This document shows positions 13,159 to 26,387 of a stretch of 64,000 nucleotides of DNA, piece by piece; the stretch's first letter is position 1; each line of letters begins with the position of its first letter. The notes below the pieces were generated by a model that was given only the letters and a program-made list of their open reading frames with translations, did no database searches and was not told the DNA's origin. The translations under genes were made by a program, and so were the position numbers. Source of the stretch: an uncultured delta proteobacterium (GTDB lineage Bacteria > Desulfobacterota > Desulfomonilia > Desulfomonilales > Desulfomonilaceae); NCBI GenBank assembly GCA_963789265.1, contig CAWBKB010000004.1:1-64000 (forward strand), read 5' to 3'.

Positions 13159-14679
13159 ATGGAAACCGGTGTGAAGGAGGGCGTCATTCTGGAGGCCAAA
13201 GGAATTGTGAAACAGTTCTCTGGCCAGCGTGCACTCGATAAAGTGGACCTGGATGTCCGGACGGGTGAAGTGCATGCCCTGATCGGCGAAAACGGTGCAG
13301 GCAAATCCACGCTTGTCAAGATCATTGCCGGGGCCATCCGGGCGGATAGCGGTGAGATACTGCTGGACGGGAAGCGCGTGACCATTGACAGCCCCAGGGA
13401 CAGCCGAGAGTTGGGTCTTGCCTTCATTCACCAGGACCTTAATGTGGTACCGCATCTCTCTGTTGCTGAAAACATATACCTGGGAAGGTATCCAAGAAGT
13501 TCATTCGGATTGGTACGAGTGCCCAAGATGGCTGACATGGCACGCACTATCCCCGGAGCTGTCCGCATAAACGCGGATCTCCGGAGGCCGGTAGGGGAAC
13601 TGCCTCTCATCGAACAGTGGAAAACAGTCATTAACCGGGCTCTTGCCATGAATTCTCGGGTCATTTTCATGGATGAGCCTACCACCTCTCTGACCCATAG
13701 CGAGGTCGAGGAACTCTTCAACTCTATCTCTCATCTAAAAGAAACGGGAAAGGCGATCGTCTACGTTTCCCATCGGATGGAAGAGATCTTCAGAATCGCC
13801 GATAGGGTGACGGTCATCAAGGACGCAATGAAAGTCGGAACCTCGCCTGTAAGCGTGCTGAACTCGAGGCAACTCTACAGCATGATGCTGGGAAGAGAAT
13901 TCGAGGATGTCTTCCCCGCAAAGGCCCCACCGGGAGAGAAGGTTCGCCTCGAAGTAAAGAATCTTTCCCGGGGGCATGCCGTTACGGACATCAGTTTTCA
14001 ACTTCGAGAGAGCGAGATTCTCGGTCTTGCCGGACTTGTCGGCTCCGGGAGAACAGAACTAGCCCGTCTGCTTTTCGGCGCGGACCGCAAGGACCGAGGA
14101 GATATCTTTATAAACGGTGAAAAAGCGGCCATCGGATGTCCCGTGGACTCTATCAGGAAGGGTATCGGCCTAGTGCCGGAGGACCGACACACACAGGGTT
14201 TGGTCCTTCCCATGGACGTGAAGCAGAATATTACTCTCGCGAGCCTTAAACAACTATGGAAATCAGTCCGACTTCCCCTTTTGAGCCGCCGAAAAGAGAG
14301 CACGCTTGCCGCAAAGTTCATCATCACGACAGCCGTCAAAACGTATGGAGTCGGCCAGCCGGTATCCTCGCTCAGCGGCGGAAATCAACAGAAGGTAGTG
14401 CTTGCCAAATGGCTCTGCGCCAAGTCGGAGGTTCTGATACTTGACGAGCCGACGAAAGGGATCGACGTCGGGGCGAAATTCGCACTCTATCGGCTCATTA
14501 CCGATCTTGCCAGGGCGGGGAAGTCAATCATAGTCATATCCTCCGATCTCATCGAAGTCTTGGGACTTTGTCATCGGATTCTCGTGCTGGACGGGGGTAG
14601 AATCAAAGCAGACCTGAAGAGGGAGGAGACTGACCTGACGTCCCTCCTTGCCTTGTGCCTGGAAACATCGATCAACTGA
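13159..14679 (+). CDS. Sugar ABC transporter ATP-binding protein (RbsA-like)
   Basis: GENGAGKST, two ABC domains, LSGGNQQKV. Confidence 0.95.
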   Translation: METGVKEGVILEAKGIVKQFSGQRALDKVDLDVRTGEVHALIGENGAGKSTLVKIIAGAIRADSGEILLDGKRVTIDSPRDSRELGLAFIHQDLNVVPHLSVAENIYLGRYPRSSFGLVRVPKMADMARTIPGAVRINADLRRPVGELPLIEQWKTVINRALAMNSRVIFMDEPTTSLTHSEVEELFNSISHLKETGKAIVYVSHRMEEIFRIADRVTVIKDAMKVGTSPVSVLNSRQLYSMMLGREFEDVFPAKAPPGEKVRLEVKNLSRGHAVTDISFQLRESEILGLAGLVGSGRTELARLLFGADRKDRGDIFINGEKAAIGCPVDSIRKGIGLVPEDRHTQGLVLPMDVKQNITLASLKQLWKSVRLPLLSRRKESTLAAKFIITTAVKTYGVGQPVSSLSGGNQQKVVLAKWLCAKSEVLILDEPTKGIDVGAKFALYRLITDLARAGKSIIVISSDLIEVLGLCHRILVLDGGRIKADLKREETDLTSLLALCLETSIN

Positions 14680-14698
14680 GCTGTGAGGAGATAGTTCC

Positions 14699-15661
14699 AT
14701 GAAAAGTAGGGAATTAACCAGGGTTCGGTTTCTCGTATTTGCGGGGAAGTATGGAACGCTAATTTGTCTCTTCGCCATGATCGTTGTTTTCAGCATCCTC
14801 CTGCCGGCCTTCCGGTCGTCCAACAACCTCGTCAATCTGTTGGGGCAGACGGCCATCCTCTCGATAATGGCAGCCGGGATGACCTGTACGCTCAAGATGG
14901 GAGACTTTGATCTTTCCATCGGGGCCATTGCTGCCCTCACCGGGATAGTCAGCGCAAAGATTCTGTTGGCTGGCGGAGGCATCCCGCTAGCCATCGCCTT
15001 TGGCCTTGCAACGGGTCTCATAATTGGCCTAATTAATGGTGTCTTTGTGGCCTACATTGGGCTTAACGCATTTGTTTGCACCCTGGCCACAATGAGCATA
15101 ATCTTCGGGTTGTGCCTGACGGTCACCAAGGGCATCATGTTATTCGGCCTGCCTCATAGCTTCGAGTTCTTCGGCAGAGGAGACGTACTCGGGATCCCGT
15201 TCCGCTTCGTCTTCATGATCTGCTTGCTGTTTGTCCTATGGTTTTTCCACGAGTACACGCCTACTGGCAGAAGGATGGAGGCCATCGGAGGTAATCCGGT
15301 GTCCGCGCAACTTTCCGGAATCAAGGTGGAATGGAACAGGCTCTTCGGCTACCTGTTATCAGGCGCTTGTGCAGCGGCCGCCGGGATTTTGCTGGCCTCA
15401 TCGACGATGAGTGCGACCTCCACGCAGGGTGGCGCCTATCTGTTGGATGCTTTTGGCGCCTCCTTTATCGGCGCCTCGACGGTTCGTGTCGGCCAGTTTC
15501 ATATCCCGGGTACCTTTGTCGGGGTTCTCATCGTCGTTATAGCGGTCAACGGCCTTATCATTCTTATGGTGCCGGGCTATCTGACGGACATGATCAAGGG
15601 AATTATTCTTCTCCTGGCAATCATGTTGTCTGGAGCGGTCGGGAAGTTTGTTAAGGGCTAA
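14699..15661 (+). CDS. Sugar ABC transporter permease (RbsC-like)
   Basis: DLSIG, GGN..SA.LSGI, hydrophobic segments. Confidence 0.93.
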   Translation: MKSRELTRVRFLVFAGKYGTLICLFAMIVVFSILLPAFRSSNNLVNLLGQTAILSIMAAGMTCTLKMGDFDLSIGAIAALTGIVSAKILLAGGGIPLAIAFGLATGLIIGLINGVFVAYIGLNAFVCTLATMSIIFGLCLTVTKGIMLFGLPHSFEFFGRGDVLGIPFRFVFMICLLFVLWFFHEYTPTGRRMEAIGGNPVSAQLSGIKVEWNRLFGYLLSGACAAAAGILLASSTMSATSTQGGAYLLDAFGASFIGASTVRVGQFHIPGTFVGVLIVVIAVNGLIILMVPGYLTDMIKGIILLLAIMLSGAVGKFVKG

Positions 15662-15883: not shown

Positions 15884-15987
15884 TGAGTCAAGAATAGACT
15901 TGAACCCTTTTGACAAAGTAGCGGCACCCCGCAAACCCGGACCAAAAGGAACCCCCAGAGAGAATTGAGTGTGGTGTACCCGGAATT
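15884..15987 (+). repeat. Two adjacent REP/RAYT-type end motifs (TGAGTCAAGAATAGACTTGAACCC; AATTGAGTGTGGTGTACCCGGAATT)
   Basis: They match the 1564/1739/19141 site and the 35120 site respectively. Between them is a short peptide tail, AAPRKPGPKGTPREN*. Confidence 0.7.
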
Positions 15988-15989
15988 CT

Positions 15990-16264
15990 CTTCGGCTCAG
16001 CTAGATGTGAAGGATATTGCCGCCTTTATCGCTGAAGACAGCCCCTCGGCGGCAAAACGATTTGTCAAAAGCTTATTCCAGGCTGTGGAAAGATCAGCAG
16101 AGTTTCCGGAGTCTGGGCGCATTGTTCCGGACTTCAGCGATCCCGTCATCCGATAATTAATTCGCAGACCGTGTAGGATCGTCTACAGAGTCGATAGCCT
16201 AGAAAGCACAGTTCAGATACTAAGAGTCTGGCACACGGCTAGGGGCACACCCGATGTCCCGTAG
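15990..16264 (+). pseudogene. RelE/ParE toxin pseudogene
   Basis: AQLDVKDIAAFIAEDSPSAAKRFV...FPESGRIVP..IR*LIRRPCRIVYRV...ILRVWHTAR. The 5' end is missing and there is an internal TAA at 16154. Confidence 0.85.
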
Positions 16265-21449: not shown

Positions 21450-21615
21450 AGGCTACTTTAGTGGCAGAATTACTGGCAGATTCTTTGAATGTATCTCACC
21501 ACGTCCTCTTCGGTCAATGAATTTCTGTGCCGGTTTACATCCACCTCAGGCTTTTCCATAAAAACGACAGACTTGGCCTGTGGTTACATTTGGGGTTCAT
21601 CCTCTGGTGGTGCGA

Positions 21616-21846
21616 TCATTCTTGTAGCTCATACTCTAGCGTCTCAGCACTGAAATCCTGTTCGTGCGGCCACATGATACCCCCGAAAGCAGGTCTGACA
21701 GAACGGAAGTAAGCTAGGTCTTTGAGCTCCACAAAATCACCTTTGTCAATATAGGGCGAAACATCAAAAACGCCCTTTCGCCCGTTCGAAAATTCGACTC
21801 TAAGTTTGTAATCCTCTGCCGGATCAACGGATATGACCTTAATCAT
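21616..21846 (-). CDS. DUF2442 domain protein (TA-like partner)
   Basis: DYKLRVEFSNG..GVFDVSPY...F..L.D..YF..V......WP.EQD. Confidence 0.88.
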   Translation of the reverse strand: MIKVISVDPAEDYKLRVEFSNGRKGVFDVSPYIDKGDFVELKDLAYFRSVRPAFGGIMWPHEQDFSAETLEYELQE

Positions 21847-21854
21847 GCTTCACC

Positions 21855-22124
21855 TCATCTGAGCGGCTCTATCTTGAAAGGCAATTGTCCTTCAACCGCC
21901 AGTTTCCAGTTGGCCAACAAGGCTTCCCTATGGATTTCGATCCATGCCTGTACCAATCTCATCTTTGGTCTCGGCAGGCCACCTTCCAGGACTTCCCCGT
22001 CATCAATTCCAACGATCGCTTCATACTCGGCGTACTGGGCATGAATGTGGGGAAGATTGTGCTTCTTGTTGTCGAAACAGAACATTAAGATCATGATGCC
22101 ATAGAACATCGAGATTACAGGCAT
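21855..22124 (-). CDS. DUF4160 domain protein
   Basis: MPVISMFYGI.I.M...D...H..PHIHA.Y...LV.AW.EIH...L..NW. Confidence 0.9.
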   Translation of the reverse strand: MPVISMFYGIMILMFCFDNKKHNLPHIHAQYAEYEAIVGIDDGEVLEGGLPRPKMRLVQAWIEIHREALLANWKLAVEGQLPFKIEPLR

Positions 22125-22393
22125 GATCCCTCCACTGTTTACACTGCTGTTCAATCCAAGTGTAAGCGAAGACCACGACTGCTGCAATAGCGAGTTGGGC
22201 GACGCGAGGCAGACTCATATCTCCACCGACTGCACATGAGATTACCCTTCCTGTCTTCGTCCTTGGTGGCGAAAGTCCGAGCTGCACAGAGGACGGATTC
22301 GTGGCCAACGCGAAAGAGACGAGCCGGGTAGTCGCCACCCACGCAAAAAATGATATTATATCTCCCCCAAAGCCGTCGCGTGAGGGAGAAGAA

Positions 22394-22657
22394 ATGTCCA
22401 GAACCAAGATCGGGATTTTCCGGCTCGGCGATTACCGCTCCAAACCCAATGAACTGGCTCGGCCAAACGCGGAGGAGGCCACGGTCCAATTGGAGCGCGC
22501 CCTGACAAAACCTGGCCGTGCGAGCTATCGCATCGAAGGTTTTCTCACGCGACCCCACGAAGCAATCGAGAAGCTCGGCCCGGTGGATGACCCTCTCATC
22601 GGCGTATTCGTGCACTGGTGCTATGGGCCTCACACCACTGACGGGGTCATCGGCTAA
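22394..22657 (+). pseudogene. Truncated duplicate of the 5' end of the fucose-isomerase-like gene at 23192
   Basis: 87 codons collinear with 23192-23452, including the RBS region; ends in TAA at 22655. Confidence 0.9.
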
Positions 22658-22690
22658 GAGATCGGGTCCTTTCAGACGCGGAGGTGCTTT

Positions 22691-23152
22691 ATGGAGAGGG
22701 ATCATACCGTTTCAGGAACGAATCCGCAGATTGCGCAGATGGCCGCAGATTCTAAAGACGAACAAACCCATGCTATCATCGGCGCGGCAATGGAGGTTCA
22801 TCGACAACTTGGTGCGGGATTCTTAGAAGCCGTTTATCAGCAGGCGCTCGCTATCGAGTTCTCGGCCCGAGGCGTTCCTTTCGCGAGCGAAGTGGATCTG
22901 CCGGTGCACTATAAGGGGCAGCGACTGCCCTGCTCCTATCGCGCTGATTTTGTGTGTTACAACAATGTGATTGTCGAGCTGAAGGCGTTGAAAGCGATCA
23001 CTAGCATCGAAGAGGCCCAACTCTTGAATTATCTCAAGGCAACACGTCTCGAGCGGGGTCTACTAGTGAATTTCGGCCGGCAAAGCCTTGAGTTTAAGCG
23101 TTTTGTATTTTCTAATCTGCGAAAATCTGCGGAATCTGCGGATAAGAGATGA
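22691..23152 (+). CDS. GxxExxY protein (PD-(D/E)xK nuclease-like)
   Basis: IIGAAMEVH..LGAGFLEAVYQ, YRADFVC, VELKA, QLLNYLKAT...GLLVNFG. Confidence 0.95.
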   Translation: MERDHTVSGTNPQIAQMAADSKDEQTHAIIGAAMEVHRQLGAGFLEAVYQQALAIEFSARGVPFASEVDLPVHYKGQRLPCSYRADFVCYNNVIVELKALKAITSIEEAQLLNYLKATRLERGLLVNFGRQSLEFKRFVFSNLRKSAESADKR

Positions 23153-23191
23153 CTTTATGTCCTCCGAAATCCGTCGCGTGATGGAGAAGAA

Positions 23192-24715
23192 ATGTCCAGA
23201 ACCAAAATCGGGATTTTCTGGCCCGGCGATTACCGCTCGCAACCCAACGATCTGGCTCGGCCAAATGCGGAGGAGGCCACGATCCAACTGGAGCGTGCCC
23301 TGAAAAAACTCGGCCGTGAGAGCTATCGCATCGAAGGTTTTCTCACGCGACCCCACGAAGCCATCGAGATGCTCGGCCCGGTGGATGACCCTCTCATCGG
23401 CGTTTTCGTGCACTGGTGCTACGGGCCGCACACCACTGACGGTGTTGTCGGCAAAGACAGCCCGTTGCTGCTGGCGAGTAATTTTTCGGGGCAGTGGCCG
23501 GGGCTCGTCGGTCTACTCAACACCGGAGCCTGTCTGGAGAGCCTGGGCCGCAAATTCTCTCGTGTGTGGACCGACGCTGAAGACTGGACCGCGGACGATG
23601 CATTCATGGCTCGTTTGGGCGAGTGGTGCGCGACCGGCCGCATTGGCTATTCCACCGACCAGATCGGCTATTCGGTTCCCATATCCAAAGAGGCACACGC
23701 TCGCTCGAGGCGCATCGCCGAGGAGATCGGGAAACGACGGATTCTCGCCCTGATGCTCGGGGATACATCCATGGGGATGATCAACGGCTACTTTGGCCCG
23801 CGGCGGCTGGCTCCCATCGGATTCTCGGAACACAAGGTCGACCAGGCGTGGATCATCGACCGGGGCCGTTCCATCTCCGATGACCGACTCAACCGGGCAA
23901 TGGCCTTTGTAAAGGAAAGCGGCATAAAGTTCCACTGGGGCGAAGACGGGGCGAATGACTTCGACGAAAACGCCACACGGGAACAGTTGCGCGACTATCT
24001 GACCGTGCTCGACCTGGTGAGCGAGTTCAAAGCCGACTGCGTGGGTTGGCAGTATCAGCTCGGTTTGGTGCCGCTGCGGCCGCCGTCGGATTTTGCCGAA
24101 GGGCTGCTCAATTCCGTTTGCCGGCCGGAGAGCAACGGCGATGTGATCATAACCGCCACGGAGGGCGATCAAGGCAATCTCGTCCCGATGGAGCTGATGA
24201 AGCGGCTACTCAAGGCCAAGGGGCTGCACCAGGGCGTGATGTTCCACGATGTGCGCTGGGGCGCTGAATATCAGGGACGATTCCTGTGGGTGCTGCTAAA
24301 CTCAGGCTCGTGCGGAGGATATGCCATGAGCGGCGACCCCGACACGCTCACAGGCGTCCACTCGTACCGGCAACCCGCCGAGTACTTCCCGATCCCCGGC
24401 GGCACATTCGCCGGTGAAGCGCGGCCGGGCACCATTACGTGGGCCAGGGCCTATCTCAAAGACGACGAGCTGTGGATGGACGTCGGGCAAGGAGAGGTTG
24501 TCACTCTACCCGAGCAAATCCGCGAGCAGTGGTGGCGCGGCACCACGCGTGAGTGGCCGTTCATGGCAGCCGATCTTGGCGTCTCACGAGAGACTCTGAT
24601 GGCATTCTATCTGAGCAACCACATCGCCGTGGCTTATGGCGACATCCTTGAGGAAATGGCCGCGCTCTCGCAAATGCTGGGCTTCAGAGTTCGTTTTCTG
24701 GGAAGGGACGCATGA
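23192..24715 (+). CDS. L-fucose/L-arabinose isomerase-like protein
   Basis: PGLVGLLN...L, MGM.NG, GWQYQLG, EGDQG, HDVRWG, NSGS, SNHI.VAYGD; adjacent to a sugar kinase. Confidence 0.78.
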
Positions 24716-24716
24716 T

Positions 24717-26387
24717 ATGACGCAGGATCGGCGCTGCTATATCGGCATCGACGTGGGAACAGGGAGTGCTCGAGCGGGAGTGTTCGACGCAAGCGGCAAG
24801 ATGCTCGGGCAGGGCTCGCACCCCATCAAAATGTGGAAGCCGCAGGCCGATTTCGTGGAGCAATCGTCGGACGATATCTGGGCCACCAGCGCTGCGGCGG
24901 TACGTCAAGCCGTCAAAGAGGCTGATATCGACCCAACGAACGTGAGAGGGATCGGCTTCGATGCAACCTGCTCCCTGGTGGCCCTGGGCGAGAACGATCG
25001 GCCCGTGTCGGTGAGCCCTACCGGTAACGACGAACAGAACGTCGTTGTTTGGATGGACCACAGGGCCCTGGAGCAGACCGCTCGCATCAACCACGGAAGA
25101 CATGCCGTGCTGCGCTATGTGGGCGGGATCATCTCCCCTGAGATGGAGTCGCCCAAGCTTTGCTGGCTCAGAGAGAATCTTCCAGATTGCTGGAAACGAG
25201 CTCGTCGCCTTTTCGATCTGGCTGATTTCCTGACCTATCGAGCCACCGGCGACGAGACACGTTCTCTGTGCACCACCGTGTGCAAGTGGACCTACCAAGG
25301 TCACTTGGAGCCGACGATATCGGGCAGCGTGGGGAGCTGGGACGACACATACTGGCAGTCCATCGGGCTGGGTGAACTGGCCTCGGAAGGCTACCGGCGC
25401 ATCGGAACTTGCATCCGCCCTATGGGCGAATCAATTGCGCACGGGCTTACCGAAAGAGCGGCAGCCGATTTTGGTCTCAGCCCGGGAACCCCGGTTGCGG
25501 TGTCGATCATCGACGCCCATGCCGGCGGCGTTGGAATGCTGGGAGCACGTCTCACTGAGGGCGGCGAGGTTGAGCTTGAAAAGCGGCTGGCACTCATTGG
25601 CGGCACATCCAGTTGTCACATGGCGGTCTCCAAAGAACCTCGCTTCGTCGACGGAGTCTGGGGACCGTTCTATTCCGCGATGATCCCCGGGTTATGGCTA
25701 ACCGAAGGCGGCCAATCCGCCACCGGCGCGCTCATCGATCACATCATCTTCAGTCACGTTCGGAGCCGTGAGCTTGAACAAGATGCAAAAGAGCGCGGGA
25801 TCACCGTGTACGAAATTCTCGCGGAGGTGCTCGAAAAGCTCGCCGCGGGAACGGAGTTTCCAGCCCAGCTCAGCAAGAAGCTCCACGTGCAACCGGATTT
25901 CCACGGCAACCGCTCCCCCAGAGCCAATCCGCACGCCCGCGGGATGGTCTCGGGTCTGAGGCTCAGCGACAGCCTTGAGGACCTTGCCCTGCTCTACTTG
26001 GCTACAATCCAAGCGGTAGCCCACGGCACCCGTCACATCCTGGATGCCATGACCGAAAGCGGGTACGAGATCGAGACCGTGCTCACCACGGGCGGCGGTG
26101 CGAAGAATCCCATCTTCCTACGCGAGCACGCGGACATTACCGGACGAAAAATCGTCCTCCCCAAAGAGCCCGAGGCTGTGCTCCTCGGCTCGGCCATGCT
26201 CGGCGCGGTCGCGGCCGGGGATTTCGCCACGGTGACTGAAGCGATGACAAAAATGAGCGCAGCCGACACGGTTATCGAACCCTGCCAGGGCGCCGCAGCG
26301 AAGTACCACAACGCCAAGCACGAGGTTTTCCTTCGGATGTACGAAGATCAGATGCAATACAACGAGATGATGGACCGAAAATCGTAG
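24717..26387 (+). CDS. FGGY-family carbohydrate kinase (D-ribulokinase-like)
   Basis: [35 protein letters not shown]. Confidence 0.95.

Follow-up and report, generated by a model that had tools for sequence, protein, structure and literature searches.

The start of a fucose-isomerase-family gene in the window, by which we mean the whole 64,000-nt stretch analysed here (positions 1 to 64,000 of contig CAWBKB010000004.1 from the assembly GCA_963789265.1 of an uncultured delta proteobacterium), is occupied by a "cassette" with a single gene of the GxxExxY family, and the leader and 5' coding region of the isomerase gene are found on both sides of this cassette. Judging from its sequence, the locus is a case of insertion with long target duplication in which the cargo is new and the stacked events form an unusually informative record. 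We consider it fairly probable (roughly 0.6) that host recombination made this insertion, and that deletions then wore the duplicated part down while gene conversion kept the copies similar. All coordinates are those of the window unless a contig is named; G-numbers denote genomes of relatives and L-numbers denote loci, G000 being the source genome of the window and C1, C5 and C6 its contigs.

The duplicated 5' end of the isomerase gene

A repeat finder detected a direct repeat of 294 nt with 91% identity (22366-22659 and 23164-23457, spacing 798), which BLASTN widened to 310 nt at 89.7% (22350-22659 and 23149-23457). The upstream copy (22350-22659, forward strand) comprises a leader of the type termed here A, with a ribosome-binding site (RBS), and isomerase codons 1-87, which form an open reading frame (ORF, 22394-22657) from an ATG at 22394 to a TAA stop at 22655-22657. 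The downstream copy (23149-23457, forward strand) comprises a leader of a different type, B (23149-23191), and codons 1-88 of the intact gene (23192-24715, forward strand), whose 507-aa product matches Pfam Fucose_iso_C (7e-15) and shares 86-94% of its amino acids with orthologues across residues 1-507. Between the copies stands the intact 153-aa ORF of the GxxExxY gene. The duplication that an earlier note, made from the letters of the window, had described around this gene is real, and the note was also right that the target survives: with its leader and 87 initial codons present to the left and to the right of the cassette, the isomerase gene stays alive through the second leader and 5' end behind the insert.

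The copies have diverged, as had been noticed, with 23 differing codons, 12 of them synonymous and 11 non-synonymous, the latter including the change of K88 to a stop. The damaging-looking upstream changes W10R, P11L and L40P strike near-invariant positions (W in 28 of 29, P or L in all 29 intact orthologues), and K38T and V86I likewise strike invariant or nearly invariant positions among these 29 sequences. The intact copy has unique residues of its own with respect to the orthologues (Q17, E43 and M60). In the upstream copy we have the displaced resident 5' end, by now a decaying pseudogene. In the related genome G076 a pair of DhiA/DhiT-like genes directly precedes an intact isomerase gene; the window is collinear with G076 at 85% across its own DhiA/DhiT-like pair (21614-22143) and at 82.7% across leader plus 87 codons (22331-22654, aligned to the leader and gene start of G076), and the truncated upstream copy therefore occupies the old context.

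Three types of leader, which we term native, A and B, are found among the isomerase loci. The native leader directly follows the gene of an ABC permease. The type-A leader contains ...AAAAATGGTATTAT..., with a promoter-like extended -10, and precedes the isomerase at about 31 loci with varied cargo and no cassette. In the window it stands in the upstream copy and includes the site TCGCCA-16-TATTAT with TG (22332-22359, forward strand), the only promoter-like match on this strand in 21500-23500; the number of such matches does not exceed that in shuffled sequences, and the site might act as a promoter. The type-B leader, which contains ...GCGGATGAGAGATGACTTTATG... and precedes the intact gene in the window, is joined to the right arm of the cassette. 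It was found at all 12 full-cassette loci and at three with a miniature or cut copy, in at least three genera; of the 16 loci with this leader, 15 have it directly beside the right arm, and the sixteenth is cut off by a contig edge. Since this leader always goes with the right arm, the right joint should be single in origin and the leader should have arrived with the cassette. This bears out one half of the proposal that a replacement 5' end came in together with the nuclease gene. The other half, which concerns the coding part, finds no such marker, because the two copies undergo concerted evolution and a foreign and a resident origin of the spare codons look the same.

Recurrence of the layout in relatives

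The window comes from a metagenome-type assembly that has 6% contamination, and the genomes of the relatives are likewise metagenome-assembled and not independent. The joints are bridged by contigs of separate runs. Those of run X1, which may be the source sample, span 22200-22605 and 22576-22968 without a single difference and leave about 22969-23373 uncovered, while run X2, which belongs to another study, has a contig across 22427-23254 (95.5%) that connects the fragment, by way of the cassette, with the second gene start. The joint expected from a pop-out of the cassette (a skip of 798) occurs in none of the contigs of four runs, which are in themselves unable to show its absence.

The isomerase was found in 12 of the 41 nearest genomes, and its first 87 residues in 38 of 70 genomes of the family. 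Ten of these 38 also have partial upstream copies, whereas 28 have a single leader and gene start (e.g. G076, with the same DhiTA context). Our comparison covers 32 loci from 31 of the 38 genomes, plus the window, six genomes being left aside, and 80 metagenome loci kept from 248 matches, 28 of which are close (84-94% at the amino acid level) and 52 more distant. The layout of 87-codon fragment, GxxExxY gene and isomerase gene recurs in G002 and G004, in both of which the fragment is frameshifted, and in the metagenome loci L078, L092 and L093. With the queries used here, neither cassette nor isomerase fragment was detected at any of the 52 more distant loci. The supposedly intact isomerases of G002 (L032, 1-506) and G004 (L030, 7229-8750) read in two frames, with a break near codon 50 in the former and near codon 400 in the latter, which is either a real frameshift or an assembly error.

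The GxxExxY cassette

The GxxExxY gene (22691-23152, forward strand) encodes a protein of 153 aa with matches to PF13366 (PDDEXK_3; 1.5e-42, 145.1 bits versus a curated cut-off of 22) and TIGR04256 (2.7e-45, 153.5 bits versus 35). It is the single ORF of the insert, which has no methyltransferase, and the only PF13366 match in G000. The ORF is intact in all six species genomes that have the cassette at the isomerase site, with RADF...VELK kept, and ratios of non-synonymous to synonymous divergence (dN/dS) between copies at this site range from 0.19 to 0.43; the gene is under purifying selection. The function of the family is listed as unknown (PMC3424549). Literature searches returned no paper on its biochemical activity or function, and a sequence search of PDB with the protein gave no match.

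The portable core of the cassette (22721-23147, forward strand) has the ends AATCCGCAGAT...ATCTGCGGAT and is bounded by inverted arms of 35 nt with 83% identity (22722-22756 and 23109-23143), which are built of units of about 9 nt and lie within the ends of the ORF. The boundaries of the core come from six close copies at other loci of relatives, in which nucleotide homology begins at 22682-22746 and stops at 23123-23147; four of the six run from 22714 or 22721 to 23147. On the left, the core is preceded by a flank (22655-22720, forward strand) that includes the joint to the isomerase fragment, the RBS GGAGG and the ATG at 22691. The same flank stands before the cassette copy on contig C15 of G004, and its GCGGAGG (22679-22685) is the joint in shorter alleles. 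Folding of the whole cassette as single-stranded DNA was not distinctive (z = -1.3). We also considered the 8-nt direct repeat TAAGAGAT around the cassette as a target-site duplication and rejected it, because its right copy overlaps GCGGAT(T/G)AGA, the end of the cassette that is conserved at other loci.

Internally deleted mini-copies, some of them in tandem, stand beside a full copy or replace it in G018, G010, L084, L090, L091 and L098. At L090 and L091 (-173..-48), and at the contig start of L075, a mini-copy or the right arm alone precedes the type-B leader. No isomerase fragment could be detected in these alleles, from which the nuclease gene has been lost.

The earlier note had seen in the duplication a mobility route for the GxxExxY family at large. 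The survey of GxxExxY loci that it had proposed does not support this: among 17 further loci in relatives there is not one with a partial duplication of an adjacent gene, and the brackets found there are the own inverted arms of the cassettes (inverted arms or palindromic repeat arrays at 11 of the 17 at least). The long duplication therefore belongs to the site and not to the family, and this locus reveals no family-specific mobility route.

Joints and decay of the upstream copy

In the window, G002, G004, L078, L092 and L093 the left joint leads from codon 87/88 into the long left flank, across an imperfect patch of microhomology (GG.AAGA.A). The corresponding site in the intact gene (codons 85-90) is identical in alleles with and without the cassette. 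Other alleles have shorter fragments, e.g. in G010, G069 and G018 the fragment stops at codons 27-29, at a GCGGAGG common to the isomerase gene and the cassette flank; G018 has an additional small deletion between CCAAAC repeats, and the two sides of its leader-to-cassette joints have GGAG in common. Tandem units of cassette plus type-B leader, joined at GGAG, are present in G018, L084 and L098. No allele has a shorter duplication than L088 (-760..-700 from the isomerase start), with about 35 nt of leader; in it a type-A leader is fused to the cassette flank and RBS at CGTCGCG/GAGG with no isomerase codons. As far as their sequences tell, the shorter forms can be derived from the 87-codon form via deletions between GCGGAGG-like repeats. 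Deletions of the fragment are found in contigs of further runs, namely 22495>22609 and 22481>22613 in runs X5 and X3, and run X5 also contains a short-form joint (22463>22673).

The upstream copy is 90.9% identical to the intact copy of its own genome in G000, 93.9% in L092, 92.4% in L093 and 88.2% in G004, while the upstream copies share 85-89% with one another; they are thus nearer to their own partners than to each other, despite the common joint. These similarities would be explained most simply by a single old event, after which gene conversion acted between the copies, though independent events may have taken place in each lineage. In G000 only two of 25 base differences fall in codons 44-70 and 23 in the flanks of this segment, which hints at a conversion tract. 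Extra synonymous conservation in codons 44-70 was considered and discarded, third-position diversity being flat (0.27-0.37) across 48 intact copies.

A hotspot with similar scars around other cargo

Among 21 loci with both the permease and the isomerase gene, the gap between them measures 33-37 nt in six, 289-661 nt in five and 1.1-5.3 kb in ten, the immediate neighbour of the isomerase in short gaps being the ABC permease. The cargo of the gap includes toxin-type genes (VapBC, BrnT/BrnA, ParE, HEPN/nucleotidyltransferase and the DUF4160/DUF2442, i.e. DhiT/DhiA-like, pair) as well as Shedu, NERD-NACHT, an ankyrin-repeat protein, one DDE transposase and one weak integrase fragment. With such gaps and such cargo, the permease|isomerase junction is a hypervariable hotspot of toxin-antitoxin and defence genes in this family. 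The ankyrin-repeat protein (418-573 aa), found in the gap of six genomes (L023, L050, L051, L053, L054 and L056), is an unusual cargo amid toxin-antitoxin pairs.

Scars like that of the GxxExxY cassette occur at the same gene start around cargo without the nuclease gene. In G005 a BrnTA pair is flanked by two copies of -95..+156 (52 codons), each with a type-A leader. In G085, G018 and L073 a 20-codon isomerase fragment is joined to one identical sequence, which leads to VapBC or DhiTA. In G014 and L073 the last ~120 nt of the permease gene are duplicated (at about -1950..-1850 from the isomerase start in L024 of G014 and at -2359..-2250 in L073); their second copy adjoins an isomerase fragment of about 30 codons and is followed by other cargo, as if part of another allele of this locus had been inserted. 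A remnant of the cassette after the 30-codon fragment in G014, G083 and L073 is a possibility suggested by inspection by eye; BLASTN gave none at E <= 0.01. Altogether, at least four distinct joints exist at this gene start besides the cassette's own, and the duplicated part comprises 87, 52, about 28-31 or 20 codons or the leader only, some of the shorter ones being possible deletion products of the 87-codon form.

Origin of the duplication

In the scenario that we prefer, a cassette of about 0.5 kb, in which inverted arms enclose one selected GxxExxY gene of PD-(D/E)XK type, would have landed in the 5' end of the isomerase gene by host recombination between two different alleles of the hypervariable hotspot. 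One homologous exchange in the conserved 5' end of the gene and one illegitimate joint at a microhomology would suffice; for instance, a circularised fragment of a related allele that integrates Campbell-style by a single crossover would give this geometry. The circular intermediate, and which of the two coding parts was imported, belong to the conjectural side of this scenario. The GxxExxY gene would be cargo, as are the toxin-antitoxin cassettes that bear like scars at the isomerase site, and afterwards microhomology deletions would have shortened the fragment, while gene conversion would have kept the copies alike. Some features of the locus go beyond the pattern published for insertions with long target duplication, namely the unlike leaders, the piece of permease gene at a joint, the stacked alternative alleles and the microhomologies at the joints. 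They fit an incoming fragment of a related allele that was joined homologously at one end and illegitimately at the other. The homing- or Campbell-type integration of the earlier note is thereby split: the leader pattern is that expected of Campbell-type or one-sided recombination, whereas homing is at odds with the unchanged joint site and with the scars that lack a nuclease gene.

Several observations weigh against the scenario that we prefer. Synonymous divergence (dS) between the two G000 copies is 0.24, as compared with 0.48-0.56 between cassette-bearing genera, and so low a value demands either gene conversion or several events. Trees built from the two 5' copies, which had been proposed as a check, group the copies near their own genome's partner, and with 264 nt they are too short and too poorly resolved to trace the origin of the copies. 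Neither a circular form, an empty-site revertant nor a donor allele without the leader duplication was seen among the loci compared. All full-cassette loci with a visible flank have some duplication, and therefore the cassette could be causal and not a passive cargo. Finally, the shorter forms could be independent insertions instead of deletion products.

A tentative and more far-reaching version of the same scenario, which we think improbable but worth stating, regards the junction as a recombinase-free cassette array, in which the isomerase leader and first codons would serve as reusable attachment homology for the capture, by single crossover of circles, of small selfish cassettes, whether toxin-antitoxin pairs or hairpin-armed GxxExxY genes. 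If this were true, each capture would bring a spare gene start, displace the previous one and give the cassette a promoter, and the flanking repeats would allow amplification, pop-out of circles and invasion of related genomes.

The strongest competitor, which we hold to be possible but clearly the less probable, is an internal history, i.e. an illegitimate tandem duplication in cis of leader and 5' end, with or without the cassette, the cargo having been inserted, swapped or lost later by allelic recombination; no spare gene start would then have come in with any cargo. Tandem arrays of cassettes or mini-cassettes with the type-B leader (G018, G010, L084 and L098) do show unequal exchange, the microhomologies at the joints agree equally well with replication slippage or unequal exchange, and the similarity of each copy to the partner in its own genome is what a duplication in cis would leave. 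It does not account for the difference between the leaders, type A standing upstream in the DhiTA context and the downstream type B being cassette-specific across at least three genera, nor for G014 and L073, in which the unit behind the fragment opens with the 3' end of the permease gene before the different cargo and has the look of an imported allele.

Rather unlikely is a nuclease-driven origin, in which the GxxExxY protein cuts near the 5' end of the isomerase gene and the duplication results from homing copy-in or from fill-in of a staggered break. The protein belongs to the PD-(D/E)XK superfamily, with RADF...VELK maintained and the gene under purifying selection, and at least the leader is duplicated at all 12 full-cassette loci beside the isomerase; double-strand breakage has moreover been suspected for restriction genes (PMC2853133). 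Yet like scars surround the BrnTA, VapBC and DhiTA cassettes without a GxxExxY gene, the 17 other GxxExxY loci are free of neighbour duplication, homing proper leaves none, and the literature searches brought up no biochemical activity of the family. Furthermore, since the joint site is the same whether or not the cassette is present, a nuclease specific for it would cut the very gene that harbours the cassette.

Duplications that restore a gene end are typical of integrase-mediated islands, and the locus might be the remnant of an island that used the 5' end of the isomerase gene as its attachment site, brought a spare 5' end along and later decayed to small cassettes. This would agree with the DDE transposase in the interval of G078 and with a weak integrase fragment in G063 (Phage_integrase, 5e-5, short of the cut-off), which stands upstream of the isomerase where the contig begins. 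A site-specific crossover should have a constant position, but the fragments stop at 20, 28-31, 52 or 87 codons on their inner side, and no integrase was found in the 7 kb upstream of the fragment in the window or in the other intervals scanned, which makes this origin very improbable. As to an assembly artefact that merged two strains, for which the metagenome-type, 6% contaminated assembly and the 9% difference between the copies (as two strains might show) could be adduced, or a layout unique to the window, both of which the earlier note had named as grounds for giving up its claim, the contigs of runs X1 and X2 across both joints and the same layout in G002, G004, L078, L092 and L093 leave practically no room for either.

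Comparison with known systems

Insertion with long target duplication was reportedly described by Nobusato et al. in 2000 (Gene 259:99). For restriction-modification genes, a later study (Furuta, Abe & Kobayashi 2010, PMC2853133) gives direct repeats of variable length (46-423 bp) without a mobility gene, inserts that amplify through these repeats and hosts that are mostly naturally competent; the cause of the duplication is given there as unknown, with double-strand breakage suspected as a common one. The isomerase locus agrees with this pattern in that a short recombinase-free unit stands between long direct repeats whose sequence occurs once where the insert is missing, in the variable length of the repeats (about 35-310 bp here), in the nuclease-type cargo and in its tandem amplification in G018, L084 and L098. 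It departs from the restriction-modification cases in the cargo itself, which is a GxxExxY cassette or a toxin-antitoxin pair; in the duplicated target, which consists of a promoter-leader and 5' coding region such that the interrupted gene is rescued; and in the stacking of several events at one gene start, which has left an array of 5' fragments.

In Campbell-type insertion-duplication and homology-facilitated illegitimate recombination, one homologous exchange is combined with one illegitimate joint. Integration of this kind resembles the present locus in that a whole homologous segment is duplicated around foreign DNA and the joints lie at short microhomologies, but it is a laboratory or transformation phenomenon, and at our locus neither a circle nor competence nor transfer was seen. 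Homing leaves its target unduplicated. The free-standing homing endonuclease genes of T-even phages are similar to the GxxExxY gene in being small nuclease-family genes in a conserved gene with presence/absence polymorphism; they differ in that about 300 nt are duplicated here, the supposed target site is intact beside the cassette, and nuclease-free cassettes leave the same scars. Integrase islands possess a recombinase gene and a fixed crossover; here no recombinase was found in the intervals scanned, and the inner ends of the repeats vary.

The cassette itself, as distinct from the 300-bp duplication, is reminiscent of REP/REPIN-RAYT systems and of miniature inverted-repeat transposable elements (MITEs) bounded by terminal inverted repeats, since a gene stands between inverted arms of short tandem repeats, with gene-less miniature copies in relatives and dispersed arm-only relics in G000. 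It differs from them in that the protein is PD-(D/E)XK-like and not a Y1/HUH transposase, that the arms belong to the translated sequence, as its two ends, and that no short target duplication was found at the isomerase locus.

Insertion with long target duplication, catalogued for restriction-modification genes, would thus extend to GxxExxY and toxin-antitoxin cassettes. The gene start of the isomerase provides a natural record, from uncultured soil, freshwater and wastewater bacteria, of joints, microhomologies, alleles with and without inserts, intermediates of decay and tandem amplification. It suggests that insertion into an operon gene is tolerable when the gene start and a promoter-like leader are supplied twice. 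For the GxxExxY family it advises caution, in that the long duplication would stem from the site and from host recombination, whereas the hallmark of the family is the pair of inverted arms.

Neighbouring genes and dispersed repeats

Downstream of the isomerase gene lies its conserved partner, a sugar kinase gene (24636-26387, forward strand; Pfam FGGY_N/FGGY_C), which comes after the isomerase at every locus whose sequence extends that far. Upstream, on the reverse strand, stand the DhiA-like antitoxin gene (21616-21846; Pfam DUF2442, 1.6e-13; NCBIfam antitoxin DhiA, 1.9e-7, under the cut-off), 82% identical at the amino acid level to the gene immediately upstream of the intact isomerase in G076, and the DhiT-like toxin gene (21855-22187; Pfam DUF4160, 1.1e-23; NCBIfam toxin DhiT, 97.5 bits versus a cut-off of 100). 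The 7 kb upstream of the isomerase fragment contain, besides this pair, a ParE fragment, a hydrolase and ORFs without a family; the 12 ORFs of 14.7-21.4 kb include no integrase or transposase domains. The ParE fragment is a 63-aa ORF (15965-16156) whose match to the ParE toxin family (1.2e-8) is confined to the first half of the family; it is probably the remnant of a toxin gene within the variable region.

An orthologous permease was not found at high identity in G000. The window contains a distant ABC ATPase/permease pair (13189-15661) with 38% and 30% amino acid identity to the usual neighbours, and a close orthologue of the ATPase (82%) is encoded on C5 (126714-128210) without a permease; the usual linkage of transporter and isomerase is broken in this genome.

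Arm-only relics of the cassette are scattered through G000 (C1:1434450-1434563, C1:2338264-2338376, C1:2069511-2069593, C6:419840-419951 and C6:145376-145491). In them the right arm (with the last coding bases) runs straight into the left arm (with the first coding bases), as would be expected of a head-to-tail or circle junction. Of the five, four sit within a dispersed unit of about 310 nt whose copies are 88-92% alike. Neither the arm relics nor an unrelated repeat of about 120 nt gave a match in Rfam. The latter is present in 25 copies in G000 (e.g. C6:419673-419795), often paired at a distance of 300-900 nt and on either side of arm relics.

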